Of a DNA stretch of 64,000 nt, positions 19,956 through 60,109 are shown piece by piece. The notes below the pieces were generated by a model. It ran no database searches and was not told the origin of the DNA. It saw nothing but the letters and a program-made list of their open reading frames with translations. Origin of the DNA: a virus (lineage: Duplodnaviria > Heunggongvirae > Uroviricota > Caudoviricetes). Positions within the stretch are counted from its first letter, which is position 1, and every line of letters begins with the position of its first letter. The stretch covers positions 32,001 to 96,000 of the IMG/VR virus record IMGVR_UViG_3300045988_149282, one strand, 5' to 3'. The translations under genes were made by a program, and so were the position numbers.

Positions 19956-21274
19956 AAAAGTTGATCGCACTTAAGCATAAGCTGGACGAAATGAAAGCTA
20001 TGGGAACCAATGCAAAAAAAGAGGCATTGGCCAACATGGATGACTTTGAACAAAGCATGGTTTCATTGATGCTCAACCCTTTCATCCGTTTTGGGGTAAA
20101 GAAATACAAAGTGGCAAAGCCGCTTAGTGAGTCCGTCCCAAGTGACGAAAAAGCCATTGATGTACTGAATAAGCTGGCCTCTCGCGAGCTGACGGGGAAC
20201 GCAGCAATAGCAGCTGTTGAGTCTATCGTGGCGTCAATGTGCGCCGATGGGCAGGACGTGTTCCGTCGTTTCCTCTTAAAAGACCCGAAAGCAGGTGTTG
20301 GGATTAGCCTATGCAACAAGGTTTTTGAAAATCCCATTCCGAAATTCGAGGTGCAGCTGGCGTCACCGTATAAAGAAAAAGGCGACAAATACCCCTTCAA
20401 GCCAAATCCTAAAGCAAAATGGCCGATGATTGGCAGTCTTAAGCTCGATGGTTTGCTAGTAATTTGCGAGGTTATTGTTGACGAGGAAGAGGTTAACTTC
20501 CTTTCTCGTACTGGTAATCCAATCACGTCTCTCGATCACCTAAAGCCAGCAATGCTCGAATTAGGCAAACTTTCAGGCCACAAACACATCTTCTTCGATG
20601 GTGAAGGAACAGCCGGTTCATTTAACCAGTCCGTATCTGCATTGCGCAAAAAGAACGTGCAGGCAATTGGCGCTATTTATCATGTTTTCGACTTCTTCCT
20701 ACCGGAATGGCGAGCACAGGCTAAATCCAAAGAGTATGCAAAGACAGGTATGAAGCTGAAAGAGCGCCTGGCTATTCTCGTGGCGTTGTTCAAAAACGAT
20801 CGCAGTGAAGGCTACACACAAGACATTCACCTGCATCCGTTCTATATCATCCATAGCCACGAAGACCTCATCGAACGCTTCATGAAACGCCTGGACGATA
20901 ACGAAGAAGGGGAGATGGGTAAAGATCCGAACTCTGTTTACGAGTTTAAACGCACCCGCAGCTGGTGGAAGTTAAAAGACGAAGATTCAGAAGATGGTGA
21001 AATTATCGATTTTGAGCCGGGCGATCCGGACTCTGGTTTTGCCAACACGCTTGGAAAAATTGTTATTCGTCTTGAAAACGGCGTCATCGTGCGTGCGAGC
21101 GGCATTAAGCATAAATATCTGGACGAGATCTGGAACAACAAAGAGAAGTACCGTGGTCGTATTGTTGAGGTTCATTGTCACGAGAAAACACCGGATGGCA
21201 GCTTACGCCACCCACGACTGAAATGGCCGCGTTGCTTACGCGATACAGAAGATCGAATCGGAGATAAAGAATGA
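19952..21274 (+). CDS. ATP-dependent DNA ligase
   Basis: Adenylation motif I KLDGL (K-x-D-G); start overlaps upstream stop. Confidence 0.75.
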   Translation: MKKLIALKHKLDEMKAMGTNAKKEALANMDDFEQSMVSLMLNPFIRFGVKKYKVAKPLSESVPSDEKAIDVLNKLASRELTGNAAIAAVESIVASMCADGQDVFRRFLLKDPKAGVGISLCNKVFENPIPKFEVQLASPYKEKGDKYPFKPNPKAKWPMIGSLKLDGLLVICEVIVDEEEVNFLSRTGNPITSLDHLKPAMLELGKLSGHKHIFFDGEGTAGSFNQSVSALRKKNVQAIGAIYHVFDFFLPEWRAQAKSKEYAKTGMKLKERLAILVALFKNDRSEGYTQDIHLHPFYIIHSHEDLIERFMKRLDDNEEGEMGKDPNSVYEFKRTRSWWKLKDEDSEDGEIIDFEPGDPDSGFANTLGKIVIRLENGVIVRASGIKHKYLDEIWNNKEKYRGRIVEVHCHEKTPDGSLRHPRLKWPRCLRDTEDRIGDKE

Positions 21275-21450
21275 TGCTCGGCTGGATGATTGCATTTTTA
21301 GCAGTTGGTTTTTTCATCGGTATTGTGGTGATGTCCAGTTGCATTAATGACTACATTAAAAACGGTGTTATAGAAAGACGCGGTCGTATTTATCGCATTG
21401 TAGAAATAACCAACACCCTGAAGGAGATTAAGGATGATCGTATTAAGTAA
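21271..21450 (+). CDS. Small membrane protein (59 aa)
   Basis: ATGATG overlapping ligase stop; one hydrophobic helix; below the ORF-track length cutoff, so manually read. Confidence 0.35.
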   Translation: MMLGWMIAFLAVGFFIGIVVMSSCINDYIKNGVIERRGRIYRIVEITNTLKEIKDDRIK

Positions 21451-21649
21451 ACGGGAGAAGGAAACGCTTCATGAAATCAGTAAGTGGCCGGAGTTCCCTG
21501 AGTACTGGAAGCCTAAAACGCGAGCTAAGTTAGAGCGTTTAGGGTTGGTTGCAAACGTTTCTGAAACGAAGTGTTCGGCCAACTACCAGTTAACTGATAA
21601 AGGGAAAGTATTGCTACAGCAATTAGTAGAATCAGGAGTGTTAAAATGA
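21434..21649 (+). CDS. Hypothetical small protein (71 aa)
   Basis: Strong AAGGAG ribosome-binding site 7 nt upstream of ATG. Confidence 0.55.
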   Translation: MIVLSKREKETLHEISKWPEFPEYWKPKTRAKLERLGLVANVSETKCSANYQLTDKGKVLLQQLVESGVLK

Positions 21650-21798
21650 TTCCATACATCTCATTAGCTTTTATGGGTGGCTTCCTTATCGGCTTCGGCA
21701 TCTGTCGTGATTTAATTAAGCAGGAACTTAAAACCAAAACACTGTGCATCGGAAAGCGTGTGTATCGGGTAGTTCATGAAACAAAGGTTAAAAAATGA
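21646..21798 (+). CDS. Small membrane protein (50 aa)
   Basis: CAGGAG ribosome-binding site; start and stop overlap neighbours; hydrophobic helix; manually read. Confidence 0.35.
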   Translation: MIPYISLAFMGGFLIGFGICRDLIKQELKTKTLCIGKRVYRVVHETKVKK

Positions 21799-22085
21799 GC
21801 AATTTAACTTCTTGGGACTGGTGGTTGGCCACCTATTTCTTAGCGGCCGGAGTCGCATTCGCCTTTTACGTAGGTCAGTTAGTCGTAAAACTGTTGCTGA
21901 TTAAATTTGCTAGTCATAAACGTATCGATGATGGTCTGTGGCGTCTTGGCACCCTGGTGGAAACTCGCTACGGGCAACTTAAGGAGAACGAAACCATTAC
22001 TATCCAGGCGAAACGATTCACTGCCACCATCACAAGAACACCTAGTCGTAGAGTGGCCTTGATCAAAAAAGTCACAACCGAATAA
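21795..22085 (+). CDS. Small membrane protein (96 aa)
   Basis: N-terminal transmembrane segment WWLATYFLAAGVAFAFYVGQLVV. Confidence 0.5.
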   Translation: MSNLTSWDWWLATYFLAAGVAFAFYVGQLVVKLLLIKFASHKRIDDGLWRLGTLVETRYGQLKENETITIQAKRFTATITRTPSRRVALIKKVTTE

Positions 22086-22863
22086 AAACATCATGATAAG
22101 TATTTACTTACTTATCTTTTATGTATAAGATGACTTTGTTTTCGTTGAGACGCGACTGTTTGAACTTAAATACAAGTGCAAACGAAGAAGTCTATCTGGC
22201 AGTAGCCTAATAAGCCAAACACCAGCGAGGTCAGTTTCCAGCCTCGTTACCGAAATGGGACACACTGAGCGAGTGTGATTGCAGAACGCAGGAGGGAACA
22301 TTCATGTTCCCTCCGATGAAGTAACAGAATGGGCGGTTGGTATATTTTCAACTCCATATGACTCCCGGATTCTTAGCCTCTGACCGCCCATCCTGTTACG
22401 TCATTTTGTTCAATTATGTCGTTTATACTGGGTTAAAAAGCGGCGACGTAGCCCGGCTGGTATGGTTAGCCAGCACACAACGTTGAGGCCATTACATTTT
22501 TATCAATTCTAAGGTTCTATTCACAGAGATACCGGCGAGCGTTGATATGTAACATGTTGGGCAAACATTCAATCGGAGTAGTGGCCTCAACGTTGTGAAG
22601 ACAGGATTGTTGTGTAGGTTTAACCACTGTTGCCATTGGTGCCTGTTTTCACAACAAATGATTCCATACATCACATTGTATAAATTACAAAGTAGGTGCT
22701 GTCCTCAGAAACATCATCTACTTAAAGATTTTGCCTTCTACTATTGAGCGAAGTCGAAAGCGTCTGGCACTAACGAAAAGTGCAAGTAGCGGTGCGTTTC
22801 CTGGCAGAAACTAAACCGTCGCGATTGGCACTGTTGAGTAATAAATACTGGCAGTGCTGAATT

Positions 22864-22938
22864 GATGGTGTAGCTCAGCGGTAGAGCAGTTGGCTGTTAA
22901 CCAACTGGTCGGTGGTTCGAATCCACCCACCATCGCCA
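22864..22938 (+). tRNA. tRNA-Asn (anticodon GTT)
   Basis: Manual cloverleaf: acceptor GATGGTG/CACCATC, D-arm GCTC-AGCGGTA-GAGC, anticodon loop CTGTTAA, T-arm GGTGG-TTCGAAT-CCACC, encoded CCA. Confidence 0.85.
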
Positions 22939-22943
22939 ATTTA

Positions 22944-23030
22944 GGGGAGTTAGTCCGTAGAGGTAGCGGTGTAGACTGTAAATCTACTGTCATGGCGACT
23001 CGGGTGGTTCGACTCCATCACTCCCCACCA
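22944..23030 (+). tRNA. tRNA-Tyr (anticodon GTA), long variable arm
   Basis: Acceptor GGGGAGT/ACTCCCC, anticodon stem-loop GTAGA-CTGTAAA-TCTAC, long variable arm, T-loop TTCGACT, encoded CCA. Confidence 0.8.
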
Positions 23031-23034
23031 AATT

Positions 23035-23110
23035 GCCGGTTTAGCTCAGTTGGTAGAGCGCCTGCCTTGTAAGCAGGATGTCAGCGGTTCGAGTCCGTTA
23101 ACCGGCACCA
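23035..23110 (+). tRNA. tRNA-Thr (anticodon TGT)
   Basis: Acceptor GCCGGTT/AACCGGC, D-arm GCTC-AGTTGGTA-GAGC, anticodon loop CTTGTAA, T-loop TTCGAGT, encoded CCA. Confidence 0.8.
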
Positions 23111-26514: not shown

Positions 26515-27618
26515 ATGAAAAATAGCTTTGACAGAGCACGCGCTGCGGAGAACACCTCAAAAGAGGCGATTGAGTATCTCGAAAGAGCATCTCAAATGCA
26601 GGCCGTTATGATCTCGCAGGTCAGCAATGACATGAGATTCTCGGACGCATTCATGTTATTCACTCGCTTATCTCTGCTGATAACAAGACGTCGGCCAGAG
26701 ATCGCTGTTCATTGTATTTTGATACATGTTTTGCCGCACATTGCCGATGTAAAAGTAAGTGACATTAATAGGTTCATGGTGAACCAACTGGTCAACCCAC
26801 TAATACTGGATGGCAAAATTGTTATGGGCCGCCGCGTTTTCTCTCTGATGAAGCAGTTCCTTAGCTGGTGCGCCTTCCAGGGGATGATAGACGTGTCACC
26901 GTTAAACGATATGTCACTAAACAAAGTTGCCGGTGGCGCAAAGCCTACACCTCGCGAGCGGAAGCTGACCGACGCAGAGGTATGGGTGTTCTGGAATATA
27001 TGGGACTACTTCAATGTGTGCGCTGGTACAAAATGGGCGGCCAGGCTGTGTCTTGTATCCGCAAGACGACCTGACGAAGTACTGCGGGCTAAAAAAAGTG
27101 AGTTCAATCTTAAGCGTGGGGTTTGGAATCAAGGCAAGAGGAACAAATCTGCCCGTGAGCATTCTCTGCCTTTAAGCTCATTAATGCGCACTTGTATTGA
27201 AGAGTTGTTCGAATATGGTAAAGACAGCCAGTGGCTCGTGCCTTCGAATAAAAAAATCGGGAAAGACCTTCCTATGTCTAAAGTGGCAATAGCCCAGGCA
27301 TTACGTCGTATTCTGGAACGACCAGAACTGATGGAGCTTGAGCCATTTACACCCCGAGATTTGCGCCGTACTGCGCGTAGTTACTTCCCAGCATTAGGCA
27401 TAAGCCAGGAGGTATCACGTAAAATCATGAACCACAGTCTTGAGGGGATAGATCGGGTCTACGACCGGCACGATTATATGGACGAGATGCGAGACGCCTT
27501 AGAAAGTTTCTCGACGTACATCGCATCAATCGTAGAGCAACCGGATTTAGACGAAATTGACCACAAATTTAAGGGAGATCGTCTATCAACAGAGCTTATT
27601 CGTGTAAATTTTTCATAG
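26515..27618 (+). CDS. Tyrosine site-specific recombinase (integrase/resolvase family)
   Basis: C-terminal catalytic signatures in order: ARRPDEVL (Arg), HSLP, RDLRRT, HSLEGIDRVYDRHDY (His and Tyr nucleophile). Start uncertain; weak ribosome-binding site at 26515. Confidence 0.75.
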   Translation: MKNSFDRARAAENTSKEAIEYLERASQMQAVMISQVSNDMRFSDAFMLFTRLSLLITRRRPEIAVHCILIHVLPHIADVKVSDINRFMVNQLVNPLILDGKIVMGRRVFSLMKQFLSWCAFQGMIDVSPLNDMSLNKVAGGAKPTPRERKLTDAEVWVFWNIWDYFNVCAGTKWAARLCLVSARRPDEVLRAKKSEFNLKRGVWNQGKRNKSAREHSLPLSSLMRTCIEELFEYGKDSQWLVPSNKKIGKDLPMSKVAIAQALRRILERPELMELEPFTPRDLRRTARSYFPALGISQEVSRKIMNHSLEGIDRVYDRHDYMDEMRDALESFSTYIASIVEQPDLDEIDHKFKGDRLSTELIRVNFS

Positions 27619-28560: not shown

Positions 28561-30669
28561 ATGTCTAAAAAACGTTCCATCAAAGAGGTTCAGGACTTCC
28601 GTGACAGTGTAAAACGAGTAGTCGCTCTCCTTTCAGGTAAAAACATCCCTGTTGCAGAACGAGGGGACGACGCTTATGTACGCTATAACGATGATGGAGA
28701 GCCAATTCTCGTAAACATCCCATCAATCCCGGATAACGCAACACCGGCATTGATGAATGCTGTGCGCGGATTTCTCGATCATGAGGTTGCTCACATTTTG
28801 TTTACCGATATTCGTGTGTCCAACAAAATGAGAGAAAAAGGACGCGTTCCTTCCTGGTCGCTATGGAATGCCTTAGAAGACGTGTTCATCGAGCGAAAAA
28901 TGGGTCAGGTCTTTAACGGAACAAGACGTAATCTGATGGCAACTCAGCGCCTTATAATCGAAAAAGTCTTTAAACCAAAGGCTTCAGAGGCTATTGCTTA
29001 TTGTGGCAAAGATCAGCGCGCGCTTTTTCTAAACTTCTTTCTCTGTCCGGTTGTAAGAGCCTGGGATGGCCAAGCACCGTTCGTAGATTTCATGGATGAA
29101 TACTGGCCTGTCATTGAGAAACCAATTTCATTATTAAAAGAACATGGTATCGATGTGGCCGTGCGTAACATGTCTTGCACCGAGGATTGTGTAAAGGTGG
29201 CTGCGACCATAGCTAAGATCCTCAAAGACACTGAAAGTGAAAGCAAAGGTAAGGAGTCAGCTCCGGGAAAAACTTCCGATCCTTCAGACGCTGACCAGAC
29301 GGATGCCTCTGGAGAAAACAATGAAGACAACGAAGATCATGAGACACCCTCATCGTTAGATAATCACAAATCTATCGAATCAGAATCACATAGTAAGCAC
29401 AAACATGATAATAACGACAGCGATGATTCAGATAATTCTGAATCATCAGAAACAATATTCGATGATACAGAAAATGATAAAGAGGTATCAGATTCTGATG
29501 CTTCTGATAACGCGGCGTCAGAATCATTAACCGCTGACCACGAAAAAAGAAAAACGACAGAAGACGGCTCTTCAGATATCCCAACTCCGTCAAAAATGAG
29601 TCTGGAAGAGGCTTTAGAGGAGCTGGATAGCATAGAAGATGAAGTCGGAGGCATGACAGAAGATGCTCTATCCGAAACGATTAAAAGCGAGTTAACAGAA
29701 AGCTCGAAAAGCGAATACAGGCCATACAATCGCTCATACGACTTCATCGGCTCGATTGATCAGGCAGAAGCCCATATCAAACGGCTTATTAAAACATTCT
29801 CCGATATTGATTTGGGAGGATATCCAATCAGCCGCTATCGCATCGTTCCTGAAGGCAACCAGCTCTTCGACAAATATATTGAAAAGCATCTTTCGTCAGG
29901 TGTTTCGTCGACGCTGGCAAAAGACCTGGAGCGAGCAATAGCAAGCAGAAACAGAGTTCAGTTTATACCGGGCCAGCGTCGGGGGCGCATTCATGGTTCT
30001 AGTATCTACAGATTAGCAATGAATGATGCTCGCGTGTTTCGTAAAAAAGAAGAATCTAAAGCCGTTAACGCCTGTGTTCAACAAGTGATTGATTTATCAG
30101 GTTCAATGAGTGGTATAACGATTAAACTGGCTCTTGCAAGTGCATATACCATCGCCGATGCCCTTGATCGAATAAATGTTCCCAACATTATCACCGGCTT
30201 CACTACATTTGGTAGTCATATGGCGGCAGGAGAACTTAAGGCTGTCAAGTATGAGTTCTCTCGCTTTGAATCTTTAATGCTACCTATCATCAAAAATTGG
30301 AATGAAAAGGTAAATTCTCGCGAAGTTCGCTCACGTATGGGGTGCGTAGGCTACACATTCCCACTTCTTAATAACGTGGATGGTGAAAGCATAGCCAGCC
30401 TTGCATCGTTATTTTCCGGTCGCTTGGAGGACAGGAAGATCATGCTTGTTCTGAGTGATGGCGCGCCGTGGGCTGTTGGGAGAGGTTTTGACGCTCATTT
30501 GCGTTCAGTTGCGAAGCAAATTGAAACGCAGACTGATATTGATTTGATGGCAATTGGCATCATGACTGACGCACCGGAGAGATTTTACTCAAATCATGCC
30601 CTGGTAACGAGCGTTGATAGTCTTGGTTCATCTGTAGTTACTGAACTATCTCGTATCATTTTAAAGTGA
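28561..30669 (+). CDS. CobT-like protein with C-terminal von Willebrand factor A domain and a long acidic low-complexity insert
   Basis: MIDAS-like DLSGSMSG motif near C-terminus; about 120 aa D/E/S-rich tract; AAA+ ATPase gene immediately downstream. Confidence 0.65.
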   Translation: MSKKRSIKEVQDFRDSVKRVVALLSGKNIPVAERGDDAYVRYNDDGEPILVNIPSIPDNATPALMNAVRGFLDHEVAHILFTDIRVSNKMREKGRVPSWSLWNALEDVFIERKMGQVFNGTRRNLMATQRLIIEKVFKPKASEAIAYCGKDQRALFLNFFLCPVVRAWDGQAPFVDFMDEYWPVIEKPISLLKEHGIDVAVRNMSCTEDCVKVAATIAKILKDTESESKGKESAPGKTSDPSDADQTDASGENNEDNEDHETPSSLDNHKSIESESHSKHKHDNNDSDDSDNSESSETIFDDTENDKEVSDSDASDNAASESLTADHEKRKTTEDGSSDIPTPSKMSLEEALEELDSIEDEVGGMTEDALSETIKSELTESSKSEYRPYNRSYDFIGSIDQAEAHIKRLIKTFSDIDLGGYPISRYRIVPEGNQLFDKYIEKHLSSGVSSTLAKDLERAIASRNRVQFIPGQRRGRIHGSSIYRLAMNDARVFRKKEESKAVNACVQQVIDLSGSMSGITIKLALASAYTIADALDRINVPNIITGFTTFGSHMAAGELKAVKYEFSRFESLMLPIIKNWNEKVNSREVRSRMGCVGYTFPLLNNVDGESIASLASLFSGRLEDRKIMLVLSDGAPWAVGRGFDAHLRSVAKQIETQTDIDLMAIGIMTDAPERFYSNHALVTSVDSLGSSVVTELSRIILK

Positions 30670-30764
30670 ACAAAACAGCCTTAATGATAAGTTACTACTT
30701 ACGATAGATGATGATATATTTATATAAGAAGTTGAACGCTCATTAGAGAACAAAGGAAAAACGC

Positions 30765-32000
30765 ATGACGACTACTGCACTGCAAAATGAAAAAAATCCT
30801 TCTGATTACCTTGTTTGCAAGTGGTGCGGCAAATCATTTCACTATTTTAAGTCCCATGTAGCCAATGGTAATTGCGAGGGCATTCCTGAGTCAGTAAAAG
30901 ATGCCGATCCTGACACCGTACTGAAAATGTACACAACGCAGTTTCCAGATGAACCAACGCTATCGAAAAAGGCACTTGATGCAATTCAAGCTAAACGTGC
31001 CGAGCAAAAAAGCGAAATGGCCAAATCTTCTGGCTTGACCAGTAGCCCTGGCTACACAGGCACAGTTGAGTACAAGATGGATCTGGTCGCAGCTCACGAA
31101 CTGCTAAACGTAACGGTGGAAGAACTCGGAACAAAACGTGGGACGCCGCTCATGGTTAGCGTCAACGTCAATACGCCGTATCCAGAGTTCGTTCCCGAAG
31201 TGAAGAAAGGCTACGTATATGGCGACTTCGAACTGATCAAAGATATTTTCATGATGCTTGAACTTGGCATACCTGGCTATTTGTGGGGTCATGCAGGAAC
31301 AGGCAAATCGTCATTGCCTACACAGCTATGTGCTTTGCTCAATCGTCCGTTGATCCGTGCCCAACATACAGCATCAATGGAAGAGGCACATGTTACGGGG
31401 CAAATTCTGGCGCGTGATGGCTCTACGTATTTCGAACCTGGCTTGCTTGCGCTCGCAATGAAGCATGGCTGGGTTTACCTCGCGGATGAATACGACTTTG
31501 CGTTTCCACAAATTCTTGGCGTGTATCAGCCAGTGCTGGAAGGTGAAGCGTTGGTCATCAAAGAGGCAACTCCAGAATGGCGTCGCATTACTCCGCATGA
31601 ACGGTTTGCTTTCATTGGCACTGGCAACACGAACGGATCTGGTGATGAAACCGGCTTGTACCAGGGTACAAACATCCAGAACGCCGCGAACTTTTCGCGT
31701 TTTGGCATCGTTTCGAATGTGAAATACATGAGCAAAGACGCAGAGATCAACATGTTGACAAATGCAGGCATCGTGGATGAATACGCTGAAAAGATGGTTA
31801 AGTTTGCCGGTATCGTTCGCGATGGATACGAAGAACACCTTATTAGTCAGCCAATTGGCCCTCGTGAACTTTTGTTGTCGGCCAAGATTGGAATGATGCG
31901 AGGCGACTTTGTGACAGGTATTGAGCGTTCTTTCATTAACAAACTCCCTTCAGCTTCTGCACAAGCGGCTCGTGAAGTTGTTCAAAAAATATTTGGTTAA
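30765..32000 (+). CDS. AAA+ ATPase, MoxR/CobS-like, with N-terminal Cys-rich region
   Basis: Walker A GHAGTGKSS, Walker B YLADEYDFA; N-terminal C-x2-C ... H ... C cluster. Confidence 0.75.
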   Translation: MTTTALQNEKNPSDYLVCKWCGKSFHYFKSHVANGNCEGIPESVKDADPDTVLKMYTTQFPDEPTLSKKALDAIQAKRAEQKSEMAKSSGLTSSPGYTGTVEYKMDLVAAHELLNVTVEELGTKRGTPLMVSVNVNTPYPEFVPEVKKGYVYGDFELIKDIFMMLELGIPGYLWGHAGTGKSSLPTQLCALLNRPLIRAQHTASMEEAHVTGQILARDGSTYFEPGLLALAMKHGWVYLADEYDFAFPQILGVYQPVLEGEALVIKEATPEWRRITPHERFAFIGTGNTNGSGDETGLYQGTNIQNAANFSRFGIVSNVKYMSKDAEINMLTNAGIVDEYAEKMVKFAGIVRDGYEEHLISQPIGPRELLLSAKIGMMRGDFVTGIERSFINKLPSASAQAAREVVQKIFG

Positions 32001-32002
32001 TC

Positions 32003-32206
32003 GTGCGTAAAGGATGTTTCGGCTCTCTTATCGCTGCTTCTGAAACTGGTAAGGCTTGTCTGGTGTGTCCAGACAAGCCCGATTGTCACCAATCAGCAAA
32101 AGAAGTTGCGATTTCGATGCATGGGAAGTTCGTAGGCTTCCCCAATGACAAAATCAAAAAAACCAGAAAGGTAAAAACACATGAAGGCACTGATGGTTCG
32201 AACTGA
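32003..32206 (+). CDS. Hypothetical small Cys-rich protein (67 aa)
   Basis: GTG start right after upstream stop; CLVCPDKPDCH cluster; overlaps the polymerase start; low support. Confidence 0.3.
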   Translation: MRKGCFGSLIAASETGKACLVCPDKPDCHQSAKEVAISMHGKFVGFPNDKIKKTRKVKTHEGTDGSN

Positions 32207-35200
32207 CTTCTCACTTGGGGAGTCGGCTTTAAAAGCAGAAAACGCGGTGAAGATTGCCAGAGAAGCTGGCTACACCGCTGTAATTTCAGCAGATAGCATG
32301 AATATTGCGAGCGTTATTCCACTACAACGTGCCGCTGGTGACGACATGGCGGTTATTTGTGGTGTGAAACTAAACATTGTTGATGATCCCACATACGAGC
32401 ACCGGGTTAAACTTGCTAAAGAATCTATGAGATGTATGGAATCATTAGAGCGGGGACGTAACTACTCGTTTACCGCTCTAATTAAAAATGAGCAAGGATA
32501 TCGCGACATCTGCGAACTAATGACGGTGGCCAACACACGAGAACAGTTCTACTTTGTACCGCGTCTCTCGCTCGAACAGTTGGTTTCTACATATGCCAAA
32601 GGCAACATCATCCTGCTCACTTCCGACATCGATAGCGTGTTCCAACGCAACGATTTTGCAAAAATCACAAGCTCACTGATTACAGCGGGCGGGAAAGACA
32701 ACTTCTATAGCGTGGTTTATCCGCACCCTACCCCATTCTACGACCAGATTAACGTCCGGGCGATGAAAGTCGCCAGCGCATTGAAAATAGAGCCAGTGGC
32801 GTTCTATCCCGCTTATTACGAATCGATCGACGATGCAGACATTAAAGACATTGCGCACATGGTTACGAACAACATAAAAATCGACCAGCCGCATCGTCTG
32901 CGTATCCCCCACCAGCGAGATAACGCCATCAATGGTCGTCGCCATCTCCTTGAGGCGCTTAAAGCCTTCTCCATTCGCATGGATGTGCCGGTAACAGCTG
33001 CAATGGCCTCAACAACGCAGGATACCATTATCGATGCCTGCACATGGCGCTGGCATGAATTGCCACCAGCACTGCCCAAGATGGCAGACGACGAACCTGC
33101 AACGCTGATGAAACTGGCTGTTGCAGGGCTGCGTAAACGTCTTACCACAAAAGAGTTTGGATACACACCACCTGCTTCTGAGAACAGGGTTTATGTTGAG
33201 CGGCTAAAGTACGAAATGGACACGCTGACTCGCCTGGGATTCTGTGGTTACTTCCTGATGGTGCGCGATCTGATGAATCATAGTCGTGAAACTGGCATTC
33301 CCGTTGGGCCTGGTCGTGGTTCCTCTGCCGGTTCTCTGGTGGCGTGGTGCATAGGCATAACCAACGTCGACCCAATCCGTCACGGTCTTCTGTTTGAGCG
33401 TTTCATCAACCCTGAGCGTCTCGACTTGCCGGATGCGGACTTGGACTTCAGCCAGGCACGTCGCCATGAGGTGATCGAGTATCTGAATGAACGCTACGGC
33501 GAAGATTACGTTGCAGGCATTCCGAACTTCACCTACCTGGGCGCAGCCTCTGCACTACGTGACACCGCTCGTATTTATGGTGTGGAGTCCGCAGATATGG
33601 CGGTATCAAAAGAACTGAAGAACGTCGAGGATGATAGCCTTCCATTGGAAGAGCTGCGCGAACAACTGGCAAGTCTCGACAAATACGCAACAAAATATCC
33701 TGATGCATTCAATGCAGCCTGCAAGTTACAAAGCCTTATGCGTGGCTTTGGTAGACATGCGGCAGGGATGATCGTAGCAGGTGTTCCTCTGACAGAACGT
33801 ACACCGGTTGAGCGCCGTGGTGACGCGCGTTGTATCGCATTTGACAAGCGTTACTGCGAGGCTATGGGCCTAATTAAGCTGGACGTACTTGGTCTGGCAA
33901 CTCTCGATTTGCTCGATAGTGCAAAACGCTACATAAAAGAGAACACAGGTGAAGATATCAATCTTGATGCCATTTCTCTTGAAGATCGCAAGGTGCTGGA
34001 TGGTTTTGCTGCTGGGTACACTCAAGGTGTTTTCCAGCTTGAATCAGGCCCAATGCGCAAGCTGCTTAAAGATTTAGGTGGTGGAATTGAGCCAATGAGC
34101 TTTAAAACGGTTGTTGCTACGACTGCGCTCTTCCGGCCGGGGCCAATTCAGTCAGGCATGTTGGATGACTATGTTTCTGTAGCCAAAGGCTTTATGACGC
34201 CGGAATCATTACACCCCGTTCTTGATGAACTTACCGCAGAAACAAATGGCGTGATTCTCTATCAGGAACAGACGATGAACGCGACTCGATTGCTTGCTGG
34301 CTTCACAATGGCTGAAGCTGACGGCGTTCGTAAAGCGATCGGCAAAAAAGACATGGAAAAAATGAAGAGCATGGGCGAGAAGTTCATCGTTCAGGCTCAA
34401 GCTGGCTGGATAGACGTTGAGCTGGAAGATGGCACTACACAGCGCATTCACCGTGCGGAACATTTTAAATGCGAAGACGGAACTCTGAAAACTGTCGAAG
34501 AGGCACTTGAGTACGGCGCAAAACTACCTATAAACGCAGTACGCGTTACAGCGTCACATCCAGGGCTATCAGAGATGAAAGCGAAGGAGATCTGGACCGC
34601 ATTCGAAAAGAATGGTGCCTACCAGTTCAACAAATCACACTCTGTTGCTTACTCCTTAATCAGTTATCAATCTATGTGGTTGAAAATTCATTATCCCGCG
34701 GAGTTCTTCGCTGCTGCTCTCACTATTCTTGGCGAAGATAAACACCAGGGGCTGGTTAAAGATGCGCTGACCTATGGTATTCGCGTATTGCCACCAGACG
34801 TTAACGTGTCATCTAACCGAATCGAGATCCGCACGCTTGAAGATGGCAGCCAGGTGCTGTATGCGCCCTTCTCTGCTGTGAAAGGGTGTTCTGAGAATGG
34901 CTGCCAAGCCATCATGAGAGCGCGAGAAAAAGTTGGCGGCAAATTCGAGTCACTGGCGCAATTCGAAGAAGCTGTCGAGAAACGTGCCTGTAATAGTCGA
35001 GTGCGCGAATCGCTGCAAAAAGTAGGGGCGTTTGCATCCATCGAGCCAGGCAGTCTGCCAGCAACTGATCCAGAGCGCCTACGCGACCAGGCTGAATTGA
35101 TGGGAAACCTTGTCATAGACGCAGTTAAAGCCTCACGTCCGTTTGAGATGAACCCCAAACGTTCGGCTGAAATTAACGTACTCATGACGCGGATGGCGGC

Positions 35201-35699
35201 TGAAATGGGCTTAGGTGATGAACTAATCCGCCCCAGCATTGGTATTAAGCCGAAAATCATGATCATTCTGGACAATGCGAACGGCAATGATGCTCGAACC
35301 GGTTACTTTATGGAGAACGGATACGACGACTTTAAGGCCAAGCTATTGACGGCTGGAGATTTACGCATGGGCGATCTCTATGTCACAGGTGTTTGCAAGA
35401 AGGTTAAAGACAAAGAAAAAGACTACACCAAAGACGAGATCGGCCAGTTCACCGACTTTATGCGTGAAGAGATCAATCTGGTGCGTCCGACCTATGTGCT
35501 GACGTGTGGCAGCCGGGCAACTTCATTGTTTAACAACAAAAACAAGCCATCCGATTTGGTCGGCAGGAAGGAGTATCTTCCAGACCTTGACGTTACTGTC
35601 TTTTACGGGTTTAACCCCAACATTCTTTACTTCAGACCTGAAGAGGGAGAACGACTAGAAGCGATATTAACCGACGTAGCAGAAACTATTAAGTCGTGA
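32181..35699 (+). CDS. dnaE: DNA polymerase III alpha subunit (DnaE family, PHP domain plus polymerase core)
   Basis: 1172 aa; core motif GPGRGSSAGSLVAWCIGITNVDP...FERFINPER..LPDADLDF; leader AAAGGTAAAAACAC-ATG. Confidence 0.85.
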   Translation: MKALMVRTDFSLGESALKAENAVKIAREAGYTAVISADSMNIASVIPLQRAAGDDMAVICGVKLNIVDDPTYEHRVKLAKESMRCMESLERGRNYSFTALIKNEQGYRDICELMTVANTREQFYFVPRLSLEQLVSTYAKGNIILLTSDIDSVFQRNDFAKITSSLITAGGKDNFYSVVYPHPTPFYDQINVRAMKVASALKIEPVAFYPAYYESIDDADIKDIAHMVTNNIKIDQPHRLRIPHQRDNAINGRRHLLEALKAFSIRMDVPVTAAMASTTQDTIIDACTWRWHELPPALPKMADDEPATLMKLAVAGLRKRLTTKEFGYTPPASENRVYVERLKYEMDTLTRLGFCGYFLMVRDLMNHSRETGIPVGPGRGSSAGSLVAWCIGITNVDPIRHGLLFERFINPERLDLPDADLDFSQARRHEVIEYLNERYGEDYVAGIPNFTYLGAASALRDTARIYGVESADMAVSKELKNVEDDSLPLEELREQLASLDKYATKYPDAFNAACKLQSLMRGFGRHAAGMIVAGVPLTERTPVERRGDARCIAFDKRYCEAMGLIKLDVLGLATLDLLDSAKRYIKENTGEDINLDAISLEDRKVLDGFAAGYTQGVFQLESGPMRKLLKDLGGGIEPMSFKTVVATTALFRPGPIQSGMLDDYVSVAKGFMTPESLHPVLDELTAETNGVILYQEQTMNATRLLAGFTMAEADGVRKAIGKKDMEKMKSMGEKFIVQAQAGWIDVELEDGTTQRIHRAEHFKCEDGTLKTVEEALEYGAKLPINAVRVTASHPGLSEMKAKEIWTAFEKNGAYQFNKSHSVAYSLISYQSMWLKIHYPAEFFAAALTILGEDKHQGLVKDALTYGIRVLPPDVNVSSNRIEIRTLEDGSQVLYAPFSAVKGCSENGCQAIMRAREKVGGKFESLAQFEEAVEKRACNSRVRESLQKVGAFASIEPGSLPATDPERLRDQAELMGNLVIDAVKASRPFEMNPKRSAEINVLMTRMAAEMGLGDELIRPSIGIKPKIMIILDNANGNDARTGYFMENGYDDFKAKLLTAGDLRMGDLYVTGVCKKVKDKEKDYTKDEIGQFTDFMREEINLVRPTYVLTCGSRATSLFNNKNKPSDLVGRKEYLPDLDVTVFYGFNPNILYFRPEEGERLEAILTDVAETIKS

Positions 35700-42487: not shown

Positions 42488-42534
42488 ATGCAAACTGACT
42501 GCGGCACGTTCCGCAGTCATATTTCATAGTCGTC

Positions 42535-43067
42535 ACCGCTGACAGCATACACAATCAACTACCGCTGATAGCATATCGAGAGTCTATCTCACCGCTCACA
42601 GCATACTTTACTCGATTTTTTACCGCTGACAGCATACTTAAGAAATTGCATGAATAATGTGTCCCGGTATGGGTATAACCAGAACAAAATTACCGCTGGC
42701 AGCATACGAATGTCTGACATATACCATTAATTACCGCTGATAGCATATCCAAACAAAAATTCCTCAATAAAACACCGCTGACAGCATACGTTCTATCAGG
42801 GAGTAGCAGGCAATAAATGCCTTTCACTACAAGCAATCAGCGCAATAGCAATAGAATGTTAGTGAGCGCAAACCTATATGGAATGCACTCTTCGAGGTTA
42901 GTAACCACTGGGGAGGTATGACAGAGCATTGAGTGGTGATAGATGATTTACCGCTCACAGCATACGTTCATCTCACTATACCGCTGGTAGCATATCTTTA
43001 ACCGTTCACAGCATACTTTTCAGAAAAATAGCCGCTGATAGCATACATTTCACCGCTGACAGCATAT
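42535..43067. repeat. Iteron array, about 12 copies of ACCGCTGACAGCATAC (control locus downstream of repA)
   Basis: Copies start at about 42535, 42561, 42591, 42622, 42692, 42733, 42774, 42950, 42980, 43001, 43030, 43052, with point variants (GATAGCATAT, CTCACAGC, CTGGCAGC). Confidence 0.8.
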
Positions 43068-44161
43068 CAAAGCAGTTTGAGACTATTGGAAAGGATCTCA
43101 ATCATCTTGATATTTTCAGGCGTCAAATTCTGCGAAAGTTCGGTTATCTTGTTGATAATGTTCTGTTTGGCATCAATTTCCCCAGCTTTCTCATCTGGTT
43201 TTTTGGGTTCGATGTCTTCAGGTTTTGGCGGTGCGACTTTGAGTTTTGGATTGCGGCTGTGAATCTGGATATAGATCGACCGCCCACGCTTAATCTCGCT
43301 GTATTCGAGATAGCCCAAATCTTGGAGAGCTTTTAAGCCGTTACGTATAGTCTGATTCTGCGAGCTGACATTCCTGCTACTCAAATTGAGTCGCGCACGC
43401 AATCGAGCAAGCGATACCGGCGCAGGCTTGGTAGGAAGACTTTCGATGAAGGTGTACAGAGCCTGTGCTGTTTCTTTGCGTGGTAGCTTATTGATAACCT
43501 TTAACTGCAAAAGAACCTTATGGTCAAAGCGATATAGTTCGGCCAGCTTCGGTTCTGCATAGAACACCACCGTATCTTTCTGCTCGTTGTAGTCCACGCT
43601 ATTGATGAGGTGCACCATCAGAAGCGAGATCTTGTTAGAGCCGTCGACGTTCTTTTCTTCATACGTTCTCTGGAAAGACAGAGTTGTACGCATGATCTTC
43701 AAAAGACTGTTTGTAAGCCGGTCGCGGAGTGTTTTGCGGATCTGTGACGATGGATAGCCACAAAACTTAGCAAATTTCGTGATGCTTAACTCGACACGAC
43801 CGTTAGGTTCGCCGTATTCTGCCAGCGAACGCACAACGCCCACCCACGTTTTGAAATCATGATCCATGTCGAGACGAGGACCGGTTATCTTGATATCGGA
43901 ATAGCCTTCAGAACGGGCTACTTCGAGCTGGACAAGCTCCTTTGAAGCATCAATCTCATTTGGCTTGTTACGTTTACTGTATTTTGTTCCCTTAAGCGTG
44001 GGGACGAACAACCCCAGTCGCATCAACGCAATTGGTTGGACTGTATTGTTGCTATTAGGGACAAGTTCCCCTGTGTACAATTCAAGGGAACCTTCTTCAA
44101 AGTTGTCGATGTTATCTTCTACTTCTTTGTTATTTTTACCTTTTTTATTTTTTGTGGACAT
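43067..44161 (-). CDS. repA: Plasmid-type replication initiator RepA (iteron-binding)
   Basis: Antisense ORF flanked on both sides by the same iteron; start set at M41 of the ORF-track product (AAAGGTG ribosome-binding site); basic N-terminus and winged-helix-like segments. Family assignment rests on context. Confidence 0.65.
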   Translation of the reverse strand: MSTKNKKGKNNKEVEDNIDNFEEGSLELYTGELVPNSNNTVQPIALMRLGLFVPTLKGTKYSKRNKPNEIDASKELVQLEVARSEGYSDIKITGPRLDMDHDFKTWVGVVRSLAEYGEPNGRVELSITKFAKFCGYPSSQIRKTLRDRLTNSLLKIMRTTLSFQRTYEEKNVDGSNKISLLMVHLINSVDYNEQKDTVVFYAEPKLAELYRFDHKVLLQLKVINKLPRKETAQALYTFIESLPTKPAPVSLARLRARLNLSSRNVSSQNQTIRNGLKALQDLGYLEYSEIKRGRSIYIQIHSRNPKLKVAPPKPEDIEPKKPDEKAGEIDAKQNIINKITELSQNLTPENIKMIEILSNSLKLL

Positions 44162-44181
44162 GTGGACACCTTTGTCATTCA

Positions 44182-44283
44182 ACCGCTGACAGCATACTTG
44201 ATTTGCCGCTGACAGAATACCAAAAACAGTTGGCAGCATACGGTGAACCGCTGACAGACTATCAATTACCGCTGACAGCATAC
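44182..44283. repeat. Origin iterons (5 copies at about 21-bp phasing) upstream of repA
   Basis: Copies start at about 44182, 44205, 44231 (partial), 44247, 44268; spacing near two helical turns. Confidence 0.75.
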
Positions 44284-44330
44284 ATGAACATGGCTTCAGA
44301 CCAGTCGTGGCGCGGCTTACAGCGATCGGG

Positions 44331-44396
44331 GATCTTATTTGATCTATACAAGGATCTATCTATGGATCTCTTTATTAGGATCTATCCTGTGGATAT
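44331..44396. promoter_or_regulatory. GATC-rich AT-rich block with DnaA-box-like TGTGGATAT, putative origin unwinding region
   Basis: Five GATC within about 55 bp (44331, 44341, 44353, 44365, 44381); TGTGGATA at 44388-44395 matches the DnaA-box complement 8/9. Confidence 0.55.
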
Positions 44397-44482
44397 GTGA
44401 ATAATTAAAACAGGCATTTACTACCTTCGGCGCACCTGGTGGGTTATCGTTGCCTCGGCTAACAATCACAGAAAAATGACAT

Positions 44483-45127
44483 ATGGATCTAAAACGCACG
44501 CGCTGGGTTCGTCGTCTTGAAGACGGCTCCTACACTATCGAATCAAATTCCAACCTGAATAAGCAGAAGTTGCTTTGTGACATCTGCGGTATAGCGGCGA
44601 AGTGCCCGATCTACGAAACCAGAATTAAACTTGATAAGGCTGGTGTGAATTTTCATTTAAACAGTTGCATCAGGTACGTTCCATTACTCGCATTTCGTAA
44701 ACCGATCATCGGATTGGATGCTCCCTACTTCAACACACTCCGTTCAGGTGTGACGTGGCGAGATCGTTTATCACCAGACAAGCTGATTTGCCTCGTATCC
44801 GCAGACACAGGGAAAATCATCCGTTTTGGGAAAGTAGACAAGGTTTACTCAGGCCCAGTAGACGAAATGTTGCGGAAACACAGCCGGTTTAATCATCTCT
44901 GTATGGGTGGTGAGAAAATCGAGAAGGTAGAAGAAGTGATCCGCAAATCCTACGGACACTTTCTGACCAAAGATAGCCTGCTCACCGCAATCTACATCAG
45001 ACATGTAAAACGTGAGTTCGACCTCGAATACCACAGCGAAGAAGAGCTTAACCTTGTTGACCCACGTCCAAAAGCTGGCGTCATAAGCATAAACGCAGCG
45101 CGTAAAAAGCCCACTGACGCGCTGTAA
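44483..45127 (+). CDS. Hypothetical protein (214 aa)
   Basis: ORF next to the origin; no motif recognised. Confidence 0.5.
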   Translation: MDLKRTRWVRRLEDGSYTIESNSNLNKQKLLCDICGIAAKCPIYETRIKLDKAGVNFHLNSCIRYVPLLAFRKPIIGLDAPYFNTLRSGVTWRDRLSPDKLICLVSADTGKIIRFGKVDKVYSGPVDEMLRKHSRFNHLCMGGEKIEKVEEVIRKSYGHFLTKDSLLTAIYIRHVKREFDLEYHSEEELNLVDPRPKAGVISINAARKKPTDAL

Positions 45128-57806: not shown

Positions 57807-58364
57807 ATGACAACGATTGTTGCAGGCATCGATATCGAGTCTACGGGACTGGATTTCCTTGCTGGTCATAAAATTATTGAAATCGCAATTACCCGCTATG
57901 AACTGGAGACACAGAGACATATTGATAGTCTGGAGATGCGTTTTAACCCTCGCAGAAACATAGATCCGAAAGCTCAAGCCGTTCATGGCATTTCATTGGA
58001 ACAGCTCGCAGCTGAACCTTTGTTGTCAAATCATGCCAGCGAAATTGGCGCTTATATGGGGGCATGTAGTGTGTGGGTTGCTCATAACGGCGAAGCATTT
58101 GATATACCATTTATTCGACACGAGTTTTCAGGGTATGGAGTAAGACTGCCAGAAGTTCCTGTTATAGATACTATGTTATCGGGATTTTGGGCCACAGAAG
58201 ACGGAAAACGTCCCCGCCTTGAAGAGTTGGCCTTCTCTCTTGGCTTTATATACGATCATGCCAAAGCACATAGTGCCTTATATGACACAAACTTAATGAT
58301 GCAATGCTTCTTTAAGGCACGTAATAAGTACGGATTTTTTAAATTACCCTCTGAAATTGTGTAA
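57807..58364 (+). CDS. DnaQ-like 3'-5' exonuclease (DEDDh), probable proofreading partner of DnaE
   Basis: Exo motifs GIDIESTG (I), AHNGEAFDIPF (II), HSALYDT (III). Confidence 0.75.
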   Translation: MTTIVAGIDIESTGLDFLAGHKIIEIAITRYELETQRHIDSLEMRFNPRRNIDPKAQAVHGISLEQLAAEPLLSNHASEIGAYMGACSVWVAHNGEAFDIPFIRHEFSGYGVRLPEVPVIDTMLSGFWATEDGKRPRLEELAFSLGFIYDHAKAHSALYDTNLMMQCFFKARNKYGFFKLPSEIV

Positions 58365-59515: not shown

Positions 59516-60109
59516 ATGATTGCAGCCGAAAAAATCAAACAGCGAAAGCGCGACAACTCTCTTCGTGACCTCTGGAGAACACCTGACTGGCTGTTTTCTG
59601 CCATTCAACGTTATCTTGGAGTGACATTTGATGTTGACGTTGCCTGCAACAAGGACAATGCAAAGCTGCCTAATTTCATAGGCGTTGAGCGTGATGCTTT
59701 GAAATCTGAATGGGGACAGCCAGGTACAATTGCCTTCCTCAATCCACCCTACTCCAAAATCTACCCCTGGATTGATGCGGCTATACGTGAGCAGGCTCGC
59801 GGAGTTACAACAGTGATGCTAATTCCTCAATCCCTCGATACAAAGTGGTATGAGCGTGCAACAGAGTGTGCGAATGAGACGATTATTCTGTCTGGTGGCC
59901 GCGTAGCGTTTGTCGAGCCTGACGTAAATCTGGGTCAGGTAGAAGTAAACATCAACCCAGGTGGCAGTATGCTCGTTGTTTTTCGAGGATTCTGTCAGGA
60001 CGCTGGGCACTCTATAAGCAAGATCCCTTTGGACGTCATGAAAAGTCTGGGAGGGTATGATCCTGCGAATGTGATCAGGAAAAAAAGACCATCAAAGAAG
60101 GCTGCTTAG
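59516..60109 (+). CDS. DNA N6-adenine methyltransferase (phage Dam-like)
   Basis: Catalytic NPPY motif (AFLNPPYS); N-terminal RTPDWLFSAI segment; 197 aa. Confidence 0.75.
   Translation: MIAAEKIKQRKRDNSLRDLWRTPDWLFSAIQRYLGVTFDVDVACNKDNAKLPNFIGVERDALKSEWGQPGTIAFLNPPYSKIYPWIDAAIREQARGVTTVMLIPQSLDTKWYERATECANETIILSGGRVAFVEPDVNLGQVEVNINPGGSMLVVFRGFCQDAGHSISKIPLDVMKSLGGYDPANVIRKKRPSKKAA

Follow-up and report, generated by a model that had tools for sequence, protein, structure and literature searches.

The origin oriR of the phage P1 R replicon is experimentally defined, and origins of the P1 type are served by host DnaA, DnaB and Pol III. In the R replicon, tandem DnaA boxes, a GATC cluster, a G+C-rich spacer, five iterons spaced at ~21 bp, repA and a downstream iteron array follow one another in this order. 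IncFIB phage-plasmids make up the SSU5 supercommunity (PMC7969092). Cyrano, a relative of the element studied here, is an episome of ~5.5 copies that is induced by ciprofloxacin, and its virions have been observed by EM (PMC9928086). pECOH89 and p09EL50 have 100% identical RepA proteins (PMC3999498), and a plasmid from a family whose rep regions are 98–100% mutually identical has been typed as IncFIB(H89-PhagePlasmid) (PMC13463583). A 2026 paper placed oriV in the distal downstream repeats (PMC13463583) and denied any relationship to P1.

Structure of the replicon

The window, the whole 64-kb stretch of DNA analysed here, contains a minus-strand repA gene flanked by iterons. The features of the locus are as follows.

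42496–42519, unstranded: terminator-like bidirectional hairpin (stem of 9 bp, of which 6 are G-C; both strands have T-rich tails)
42535–42789, plus strand: distal cluster of the putative incA-like array (7 iterons, start-to-start 26, 30, 31, 70, 41 and 41 bp)
42790–42949, unstranded: iteron-free spacer of 160 bp inside the downstream array
42950–43067, plus strand: proximal cluster of the putative incA-like array (5 iterons, spacing 30, 21, 30 and 21 bp)
43067–44161, minus strand: repA, replication initiator predicted to bind iterons (364 aa, ATG at 44161, preceded by AAAGGTG)
44182–44283, plus strand: putative origin iterons, incC-like (5 copies, spacing 23, 21, 21 and 21 bp)
44284–44323, minus strand: G+C-rich spacer beginning with GCCGCGCCACG, conserved with P1 oriR
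44324–44385, minus strand: GATC cluster, five AGATC(C) repeats and CGATCG (66% A+T)
44388–44404, minus strand: tandem DnaA-type boxes TTATTCACA and ATATCCACA (minus-strand reading), aligned with the tandem DnaA site of P1 oriR

The 16-nt repeat ACCGCTGACAGCATAC is present in 17 copies, all on the same strand and confined to the locus. When the 16-mer is scanned at up to 3 mismatches, 12 copies are counted downstream of repA (42535–43067) and five upstream (44182–44283). Both counts, as well as the phasing of the upstream copies at about 21 bp, agree with the original prediction. The core CCGCTGACAGCATA at up to 2 mismatches gives 16 matches, all on the plus strand, within 42536–43066 and 44183–44282. 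The number expected by chance is 0.40, and none of 100 shuffles attains 16.

The upstream iterons also number five in pJN2-26, PhiR41_1, p09EL50 and SSU5. The downstream number varies: 12 in the window and in p09EL50, 9 in PhiR41_1 and 8 in pJN2-26. PhiR41_1 has lost three iterons of the distal cluster by a clean 87-bp deletion that runs from iteron to iteron. Five fixed upstream copies and a variable downstream set are what is expected of an essential origin beside a dispensable control array. The iteron sequence is specific to each RepA lineage, while the layout is constant across lineages.

The spacer at 42790–42949 is kept in PhiR41_1, but its sequence is not conserved in Klebsiella pJN2-26. 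Its repA-sense strand has a modest folding score (z = -3.3, on this one strand), and a search for a hidden RNA in it gave zero Rfam matches. The hairpin at 42496–42519 marks the left boundary of the replicon and terminates the plus-strand operon that stops at 42487.

The RepA protein

The antisense repA gene corresponds to the minus-strand ORF at 43067–44161, whose product matches the WH1 domain of iteron initiators, Pfam Rep3_N (PF01051; E 3.9e-9, 37.5 bits against a gathering score of 22.4), and PHROG 775 (E 5e-133). None of the NCBIfam models matches it. Sequence and profile searches for relatives among solved structures returned nothing usable, so the winged-helix fold of RepA is predicted from the Pfam match and the homology to P1.

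RepA and P1 RepA are 43.5% identical over residues 32–309 (tblastn, E 2e-64), and 44% identical across the full length of the P1 protein in the multiple alignment. Relative to P1 RepA, the protein has both an N-terminal and a C-terminal extension. The latter, of ~55 aa, is found in SSU5-group RepAs in general; it is of low complexity, and little of it is conserved from the SSU5 type to the type in the window. RepA is also 49.8–50.9% identical (E ~1e-82) to the RepA proteins of plasmids typed as IncFIB by MOB-suite, which places it in the RepFIB family.

No minus-strand promoter turned up within the origin iterons in a scan for the consensus. The best sigma-70 candidate of a relaxed scan, TTGGTA-18-AAGTAT at 44223–44194 on the minus strand, is weak (7/12 matches). 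Since the scans gave only this candidate, we infer autoregulation of repA from P1.

The origin region and its relation to P1

At 44284–44420, the half of the origin outside the iterons, the DNA is 82% identical to the left half of P1 oriR; tandem DnaA boxes, AGATCC repeats and GCCGCGCCACG spacer all fall within the matching segment. A GATC cluster and a DnaA-box-like site had been predicted beyond the upstream iterons, and both are present. Six GATC sites lie within ~60 bp at 44324–44382, the densest 70-bp stretch in the 64 kb of the window (background 4.5 per kb), and the cluster aligns with the five annotated Dam sites of P1. It would serve both as a site of Dam methylation and SeqA binding and as the strand-opening region.

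The predicted DnaA site is ATATCCACA at 44388–44396. A second DnaA-like box, TTATTCACA at 44396–44404, adjoins it just past the point where that prediction ended. Each box has one mismatch and is individually non-significant (17 in the window against 15 expected); their weight comes from their position and their homology to the DnaA boxes of P1. The tandem boxes are conserved in pJN2-26 and JK004, and the whole block of DnaA boxes, GATC cluster and spacer is common to SSU5, Cronobacter JK004 and Klebsiella pJN2-26.

The order of the elements is the same as in P1. RepA homology, five phased iterons, DnaA boxes with a GATC cluster, and a downstream array are all found. In both replicons, the downstream array begins at the repA stop codon: the final iteron of the proximal cluster overlaps it, and iteron 9 of P1 incA starts on the last base of repA. 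The spacing of the upstream iterons is 21, 21, 21 and 22 bp in P1 incC and 23, 21, 21 and 21 bp in the window.

The iterons themselves are unrelated, GTATGCTGTCAGCGGT in the window and GATGTGTGCTGGAGGGAAA in P1. The iteron identity that goes with the IncY specificity of P1 is lacking, and the replicon is accordingly a homolog of the P1 replicon outside the P1 incompatibility group. The 12 downstream iterons form two clusters and are all direct, whereas P1 has 9 (3 direct and 6 inverted). Because all 17 iterons of the window share one orientation, unlike those of P1 incA, the pairing geometry may differ.

The surroundings also differ. Downstream of the array there are small hypothetical genes on the opposite strand, and parA-parB-parS, which directly follows incA in P1, is absent from this position. 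The par genes of the window lie 29 kb from the replicon and encode a small ParA, while the ParA of P1 is of a different type. A P1-like RepL/oriL lytic replicon is not seen in the 64-kb window.

Based on the sequence, the locus is a true P1/RepFIB-type iteron replicon, with its origin upstream of repA and an incA-like copy-control array downstream. The RepA homology, the layout matching that of P1 and the 82% identity of the origin uphold the original reading of the locus as a P1/RepFIB-like replicon.

Relatives and distribution of the element

The 1.9-kb locus is at least 99% identical to ~46 plasmid records, p09EL50 among them, and to the phages PhiR41_1 and CMS-2020a. It is present in 119 of 5,426 complete E. 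coli genomes, at 184 places, all of them (100%) in plasmid records and none in a chromosome. The replicon of pECOH89, p09EL50, pEc_K1G_A and PhiR41_1, IncFIB(H89-PhagePlasmid), shows 99.1–99.7% DNA identity across the locus, and repA and its flanks are nearly identical to those of pECOH89 and p09EL50. The match to p09EL50 is 99.6% over 1921 bp, with 17 iterons at positions identical to those in the window; p09EL50 has ~2 kb of additional genes nearby, which are absent from the window. Like the iteron loss in PhiR41_1, this is a minor polymorphism. The type label is taken from PMC13463583, and the assignment here is by sequence identity. The phage relatives listed for the family in PMC13463583 are those that the window matches. 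Published and RefSeq annotations of this type differ from the anatomy described above in the repB start and the placement of oriV.

The replicon of SSU5, pHCM2 and Cyrano (pLF82) occupies the syntenic position, with the same genes flanking repA, and shares the layout: five phased iterons upstream and the conserved block of DnaA boxes and GATC sites. Its RepA is only 48% identical to that of the window, its iteron, AACCACTGTAGAGAGTAG, is different, its downstream array has direct and inverted copies, and additional iterons are present farther upstream. It is a distinct type, probably compatible with the replicon of the window.

The Klebsiella pKPHS1-type replicon (pJN2-26, vB_KpnS_p4727) is closer: its RepA is 85–87% identical, and it has the same iteron consensus, five upstream iterons and the 8 downstream iterons noted above. 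Classical RepFIB replicons of IncF conjugative plasmids have a RepA ~50% identical to that of the window, an upstream GATC cluster and iterons on both sides. They differ in the iterons, in their carriers, which are conjugative plasmids and not a phage genome, and in a shorter RepA (325–336 aa as annotated).

The backbone and synteny of SSU5 are common to the window, in which phage structural, tail and replisome genes are present. DNA identity to SSU5 is 80.6% within the span 12890–22608. The exclusively plasmid-borne location among the 5,426 complete genomes agrees with the extrachromosomal maintenance typical of the SSU5 supercommunity. Judged by these similarities, the locus is the plasmid-maintenance replication unit of a widespread E. 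coli phage-plasmid of ~110 kb, belonging to the SSU5 family and the pECOH89/p09EL50/PhiR41_1 lineage. The membership in the SSU5 group and the plasmid-only location bear out the earlier view that the replicon is the hallmark of a phage-plasmid.

The element might alternatively be a phage-like plasmid that has lost infective virions, with the replicon on a decayed prophage. The matching records are nearly all deposited as plasmids, one E. coli SSU5-like phage-plasmid is not inducible with mitomycin C (PMC9600943), and PMC13463583 questions whether the deposited relatives are true phages. However, the near-identical PhiR41_1 (host E. coli K-12 MG1655) and CMS-2020a were deposited as phages, virion formation is known for the relatives SSU5 and Cyrano (PMC9928086), and the long tail-gene ORFs of the window are intact. 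Decay is an unlikely explanation, if one to be taken seriously. The identification of the replicon is left untouched by it.

The reading as the replicon of a phage-plasmid is in line with the public record. The replicon is already known and catalogued, as an existing PlasmidFinder type with more than 100 public records of the same sequence.

Other replication and maintenance genes

Further maintenance genes are encoded elsewhere in the window.

13042–14069, plus strand: small ParA ATPase (222 aa) and a 120-aa partner, presumed to form the partition system, encoded 29 kb away from the replicon
26515–27618, plus strand: tyrosine recombinase (Pfam Phage_integrase, E 2.9e-10), presumed to act in multimer resolution
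59516–60109, plus strand: the element's own Dam-family N6-adenine methyltransferase (Pfam PF05869, E 2.9e-38)

A ParA/ribbon-helix-helix pair, a tyrosine recombinase and a full replisome had been proposed for the element. The recombinase (26515–27618) and the replisome stand: a DnaB-like helicase at 15956–17296, a primase at 17306–18559, DnaE at 32181–35699 and a DnaQ-like exonuclease at 57807–58364. ParA (13042–13710) stands as well, while the ribbon-helix-helix assignment of its partner (13707–14069) is backed by neither Pfam nor NCBIfam. The partner has no Pfam match, belongs to a PHROG of unknown function and resembles the aCcr1 family only below threshold. No parS-like repeats were found near the ParA operon. 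The methyltransferase may be functionally tied to the GATC-rich origin.

With this replisome and the RepA replicon, the genome presumably has two replication systems, as was originally proposed. RepA and oriR could, on the other hand, also provide the lytic origin, one origin working in two modes with the DnaB-like helicase, the primase and the Pol III alpha of the element. Neither a separate lytic origin nor another initiator, of the RepL/oriL type or otherwise, was identified among the annotated genes of the 64-kb window, and the C-terminal extension is common to SSU5-group RepAs and absent from P1 RepA. Against this, the window covers 64 kb of ~110 kb, and a lytic origin could lie elsewhere or be unrecognisable; the extension is the low-complexity, poorly conserved sequence described above, and an origin of the P1 oriR type uses DnaA, DnaB and Pol III of the host. 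The dual role is improbable. Still more doubtful is the specific version in which RepA/oriR recruits the helicase, primase and Pol III alpha of the element via the ~55-aa extension, and the same origin switches from plasmid to runaway lytic replication, the switch being the variable incA-like array, with its 12, 9 or 8 iterons, together with the Dam that the element encodes.

Position of the origin

The origin has been placed on the other side of repA. PMC13463583 takes four distal 21-bp repeats as oriV (pEc_K1G_A annotation), IncpKPHS1 plasmids are annotated similarly, PMC6735626 lists just four downstream iterons, and the 1215-nt RefSeq repB, with its start at 44281, spans the upstream repeats. 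The distal downstream cluster at 42535–42642 would then be the replication origin, and the upstream repeats would be only operators or repB coding sequence. The downstream array, however, contains zero GATC sites and zero DnaA boxes, the DNA upstream of repA has 82% identity to P1 oriR, an origin established by experiment, and PhiR41_1, a phage record with E. coli MG1655 as host, lacks three of the four distal repeats. The 404-aa repB ORF is an over-extension, because homology of RepA to P1, SSU5 and JK004 starts only past the ATG at 44161 in the multiple alignment. An origin in the downstream array is highly improbable and was rejected for its lack of GATC sites and DnaA boxes and for the P1 oriR homology upstream. 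The 12 downstream repeats are most likely an incA-like copy-control array, by analogy with P1.

The repeats flanking repA were also rejected as att sites, although the pJN2-26 record (GenBank MZ779062) gives the labels attL and attR to two 20-bp copies. The repeats number 13 to 17 rather than 2, surround an initiator gene at a 21-bp phasing and co-vary with the RepA lineage, and no chromosomal locus was found in 5,426 complete E. coli genomes, which makes this reading next to impossible.

Proposed mechanism and implications

The plasmid-prophage replicon of this SSU5-family phage-plasmid is a homolog of the P1 R replicon and very probably works like it. The proposal builds on the observed homology of RepA and the origin, the anatomy, the way the iterons change along with the RepA lineage and the plasmid-only location. 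At 44182–44283, RepA monomers would bind the five iterons, which lie in helical phase, and host DnaA would bind the tandem boxes at 44388–44404. Jointly, the two proteins would open the adjacent A+T-rich stretch of GATC repeats. The Dam methylation state, set by the host or the element's Dam, would license initiation and permit sequestration after it. A repA promoter inside the origin iterons would let RepA repress its own synthesis. The downstream iterons at 42535–43067 may titrate RepA and handcuff the origin, leading to a low copy number. Partition (ParA and its partner) and multimer resolution (the tyrosine recombinase) would be encoded away from the replicon. Iteron binding by RepA, dependence on DnaA and Dam, autoregulation and handcuffing are all carried over from P1 in this scheme.

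An arrangement of this kind, with two presumed replication systems, is ordinary for the SSU5 family, as it is for P1, and is no discovery. The family is a textbook phage-plasmid group, and the value of the analysis lies mainly in annotation, as a small corrective. The homology to P1 oriR argues against the RefSeq extension of repA over the upstream iterons, against the downstream placement of oriV and the statement that the replicon is not related to P1, and against the attL/attR labels on two iterons in one phage record. The true origin would lie upstream of repA, partly under the over-extended RefSeq repB ORF. Its location could be useful for building mini-replicons, for predicting incompatibility and for understanding copy-number changes in resistance-carrying phage-plasmids of the same type.

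Structure of the replicon

The replicon at 42535–44396 is composed of an initiator gene, two sets of iterons and an origin block with DnaA boxes and GATC sites.

Features of the replicon
43067–44161, minus strand: repA, ATG at 44161, stop codon at 43067–43069, 364 aa
42535, 42561, 42591, 42622, 42692, 42733, 42774, 42950, 42980, 43001, 43031, 43052, plus strand: downstream iteron starts (16-mer, at most three mismatches)
44182, 44205, 44226, 44247, 44268, plus strand: upstream iteron starts (16-mer, at most three mismatches)
44388–44396, repA strand (minus): DnaA box ATATCCACA, one mismatch
44396–44404, repA strand (minus): DnaA box TTATTCACA, one mismatch, adjoining ATATCCACA

The ATG at 44161 is preceded by the Shine-Dalgarno sequence AAAGGTG. 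RepA scores above the Pfam threshold for the Rep3_N winged-helix initiator domain. It is 43.5% identical to phage P1 RepA at residues 32–309 (tblastn, E = 2e-64), and 44% identical across the full length of P1 RepA in a multiple alignment. Judged from these alignments, it is a clear homolog of P1 RepA. RepA is also ~50% identical to its counterparts in at least 5,000 plasmid records, some typed IncFIB, and classical IncFIB-type replicons likewise have an upstream GATC cluster and iterons flanking the gene on both sides. Because of this identity and layout, together with the homology to P1 RepA and oriR, the label "P1/RepFIB-like" in the original prediction is accurate. Residues ~310–364 (43070–43230) form a charged, low-complexity C-terminal extension of ~55 aa, present in SSU5-family RepA and ending in a region with a short conserved L-x-x-E motif. 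RepA proteins of P1 and Cronobacter phage JK004 lack this extension.

The iteron core CCGCTGACAGCATA has 16 matches with up to two mismatches in a scan of the window, against 0.40 expected by chance. All of them are on the plus strand, within 42536–43066 or 44183–44282. The 16-mer with up to three mismatches is seen five times upstream of repA, spaced by 23, 21, 21 and 21 bp, and 12 times downstream, which reproduces the counts and the spacing of about 21 bp predicted around an antisense repA. The downstream array contains neither GATC sites nor DnaA boxes. It is divided into clusters of seven and five by a 160-bp spacer without iterons (42790–42949). The repA-sense strand of this spacer folds better than shuffled sequences (z = -3.3), and the spacer has no Rfam match. 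It is kept in phage PhiR41_1, and the Klebsiella relative either lacks it or has no recognisable version. On the minus strand, a terminator-like hairpin with a T-run is seen at 42799–42778.

The predicted GATC cluster corresponds to six sites at 44324–44382, outside the upstream iterons. This is the densest GATC stretch of the 64-kb window (background 4.5 per kb); it is 66% A+T and lies between the DnaA boxes and a G+C-rich spacer. The single DnaA-box-like site that had been proposed is found at 44388–44396, while the adjacent box at 44396–44404 had been missed. One-mismatch DnaA boxes are not enriched across the window (17 found, 15 expected), so the weight of these two comes from their position and homology. 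The non-iteron half of the origin (44284–44420) shows 82% column identity to P1 oriR, an origin defined by experiment. The aligned part takes in both DnaA boxes, the AGATCC repeats and the GCCGCGCCACG spacer, which is rich in G+C. This block is also conserved in SSU5, JK004 and Klebsiella phage pJN2-26. The origin block is homologous to an experimentally defined origin, beyond mere pattern likeness.

A 214-aa ORF at 44483–45127 is transcribed divergently from the origin. It belongs to PHROG 2105 (E = 1e-132), without a Pfam or NCBIfam match, and has an equivalent position beside the origin in SSU5 and pJN2-26.

Comparison with P1 and related replicons

According to the fully annotated P1 record, the P1 replicon is ordered as a tandem DnaA site, five Dam sites, five incC iterons, repA and nine incA iterons. 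The incC iterons are spaced by 21–22 bp and contain the repA promoter, and the incA set begins at the last base of repA. On the minus strand of the window, the parts and their order are identical, although the par operon adjacent to the P1 replicon is not found beside this one. Among the relatives, the layout is kept and the repeat sequence changes together with RepA.

RepA identity to the window and iterons of the compared elements
Window and p09EL50: RepA ~100%; iteron GTATGCTGTCAGCGGT; 5 upstream; 12 downstream, all direct
PhiR41_1: RepA 99.7%; iteron GTATGCTGTCAGCGGT; 5 upstream; 9 downstream
Klebsiella pJN2-26: RepA 85%; iteron GTATGCTGTCAGCGGT; 5 upstream; 8 downstream
SSU5: RepA 48%; iteron AACCACTGTAGAGAGTAG; 5 phased upstream; downstream direct and inverted
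P1: RepA 44%; iteron GATGTGTGCTGGAGGGAAA; 5 upstream; 9 downstream (3 direct, 6 inverted)

Every compared element has five upstream copies, and the downstream number varies. In PhiR41_1, a clean 87-bp iteron-to-iteron deletion (window ~42551–42637) removes three control-array iterons, from 12 to nine. A fixed set of five and a variable array fit an essential upstream origin and a dispensable, plastic downstream control array, the incC/incA logic of P1. Based on sequence, the replicon is homologous to the P1 R replicon, and it is placed outside the incompatibility group of P1 because the iterons differ.

By homology with P1, RepA monomers would bind the five phased origin iterons and host DnaA would occupy the tandem boxes, and the A+T-rich GATC-repeat stretch, from the boxes to the G+C-rich spacer, would open. 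GATC methylation by host Dam or the element's Dam might gate initiation and sequestration. RepA on the origin iterons would repress its own promoter, for which there is only a weak candidate, TTGGTA-18-AAGTAT at 44223–44194, at a position analogous to P1 PrepA. The 12 downstream iterons could limit copy number by titrating RepA and by pairing with the origin. Partition would be provided by ParA and its partner and multimer resolution by the tyrosine recombinase, both encoded away from the replicon.

Other genes of the element

Maintenance and replication genes
13042–13710: ParA, confirmed
13707–14069: ParA partner, 120 aa, PHROG 5111 (function-unknown)
15956–17296: DnaB-like helicase, confirmed
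17306–18559: primase, PHROG 47, E = 5e-65
26515–27618: tyrosine recombinase, confirmed
32181–35699: DnaE, confirmed
57807–58364: DnaQ-like exonuclease, Pfam RNase_T, PHROG 192
59516–60109: Dam-family N6-adenine methyltransferase, PF05869, E = 2.9e-38

The tyrosine recombinase and all four predicted replisome genes (DnaE, DnaQ, DnaB and primase) are thus present in the window. In the proposed ParA/ribbon-helix-helix pair, ParA stands, while its partner has no recognisable family and shows only a sub-threshold match to the aCcr1 family. Repeats resembling parS are not seen near the partner gene. A separate parB-like gene is reported in another operon (PMC13463583).

Also present in the window are genes for a ligase, a gp32-like single-strand-binding protein, a 5'-3' exonuclease, a RecA-like protein, NrdAB, ThyA and DHFR. 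Neither a separate lytic origin nor an initiator for lytic replication is recognised in the window, and for this reason the "two replication systems" in one genome are a reasonable inference. Two replication systems are the standard description for SSU5-type phage-plasmids and P1. The element's own Dam coexists with the six clustered GATC sites at its plasmid origin; P1 likewise encodes Dam.

Three clustered tRNA genes (Asn-GTT, Tyr-GTA and Thr-TGT) are at 22864–23110. The tRNA region of P1-like phages matches this stretch at ~84–88% identity, so the tRNA module is common to both phage-plasmid families. The pECOH89 paper lists two tRNAs only (PMC3999498). Between the integrase and dnaE, a CobT-like VWA protein (702 aa) is paired with an AAA_5 ATPase (411 aa) at 28561–32000.

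The tail/tail-fibre module (1–12900) includes a 2762-aa ORF (168–8456) and a 479-aa ORF (8513–9952). Its identity to Klebsiella phage-plasmids reaches 97%, and it is more distant from the phage records PhiR41_1 and CMS-2020a, whose strong matches to the window start only at ~10–12.9 kb, a pattern suggestive of a mosaic host-range module.

Distribution

The 1.9-kb locus is at least 99% identical to ~46 plasmid records of ~110 kb, nearly all non-mobilizable, including p09EL50 from E. coli O104:H4 and several plasmids of Shigella sonnei. At this locus, the Escherichia phages PhiR41_1 and CMS-2020a are equally close. The remaining window is syntenic with SSU5-family phage-plasmids, with E. coli plasmids as the best full-length matches. 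The locus is seen in 119 of 5,426 complete E. coli genomes, and all 184 places are on plasmids, none chromosomal. The prediction of a replicon marking a phage-plasmid is confirmed as an observation and supported in its interpretation by this phage-plasmid family and by the exclusively plasmid location in the 119 genomes.

RepA of pECOH89 is 100% identical to that of p09EL50 and 48% to that of pLF82 (PMC3999498). Plasmid pEc_K1G_A, typed IncFIB(H89-PhagePlasmid), is in a group of 177 related plasmids with rep regions 98–100% identical to its own, and its named phage relatives are CMS-2020a and PhiR41_1 (PMC13463583), the phages that match the window. Typed phage-plasmids are mostly IncFIB, chiefly members of the SSU5 supercommunity (PMC7969092), and SSU5 (IncFIB) rep genes are already in plasmid-typing tools (10.1101/2025.09.12.675607). 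Cyrano, a relative, exists as an episome with ~5.5 copies per chromosome; ciprofloxacin induces its virion production (PMC9928086).

Conflicts with existing annotation

RefSeq/PGAP places a 1215-nt repB (404 aa, "RepB family") on the minus strand at 43067–44281. Because its start is at 44281, it reads through the five origin iterons, which encode the extra N-terminus (MLSAVIDSLSAVHRMLP...). Homology to RepA of P1 and SSU5 starts only past the ATG at 44161, where the Shine-Dalgarno sequence is found, and the PhiR41_1 record uses a 1095-nt repA gene. A 2026 study on a plasmid of this replicon lineage recognised just eight downstream repeats, assigned the four most distal (window 42535–42642) as oriV, and considered the plasmid unrelated to P1 (PMC13463583); PhiR41_1 lacks three of these four. 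The Klebsiella type has been listed with four downstream iterons only (PMC6735626). In GenBank MZ779062 (pJN2-26), iteron copies flanking repA are labelled attR (1378–1397) and attL (2648–2667); these are almost certainly misannotated RepA-binding repeats. The homology to P1 oriR argues against the extended repB, the downstream oriV with no relation to P1, the four-iteron listing and the att labels alike.

The feature itself is already known, as a catalogued replicon type in a well-studied class of phage-plasmids, and the residual value lies in these annotation corrections.
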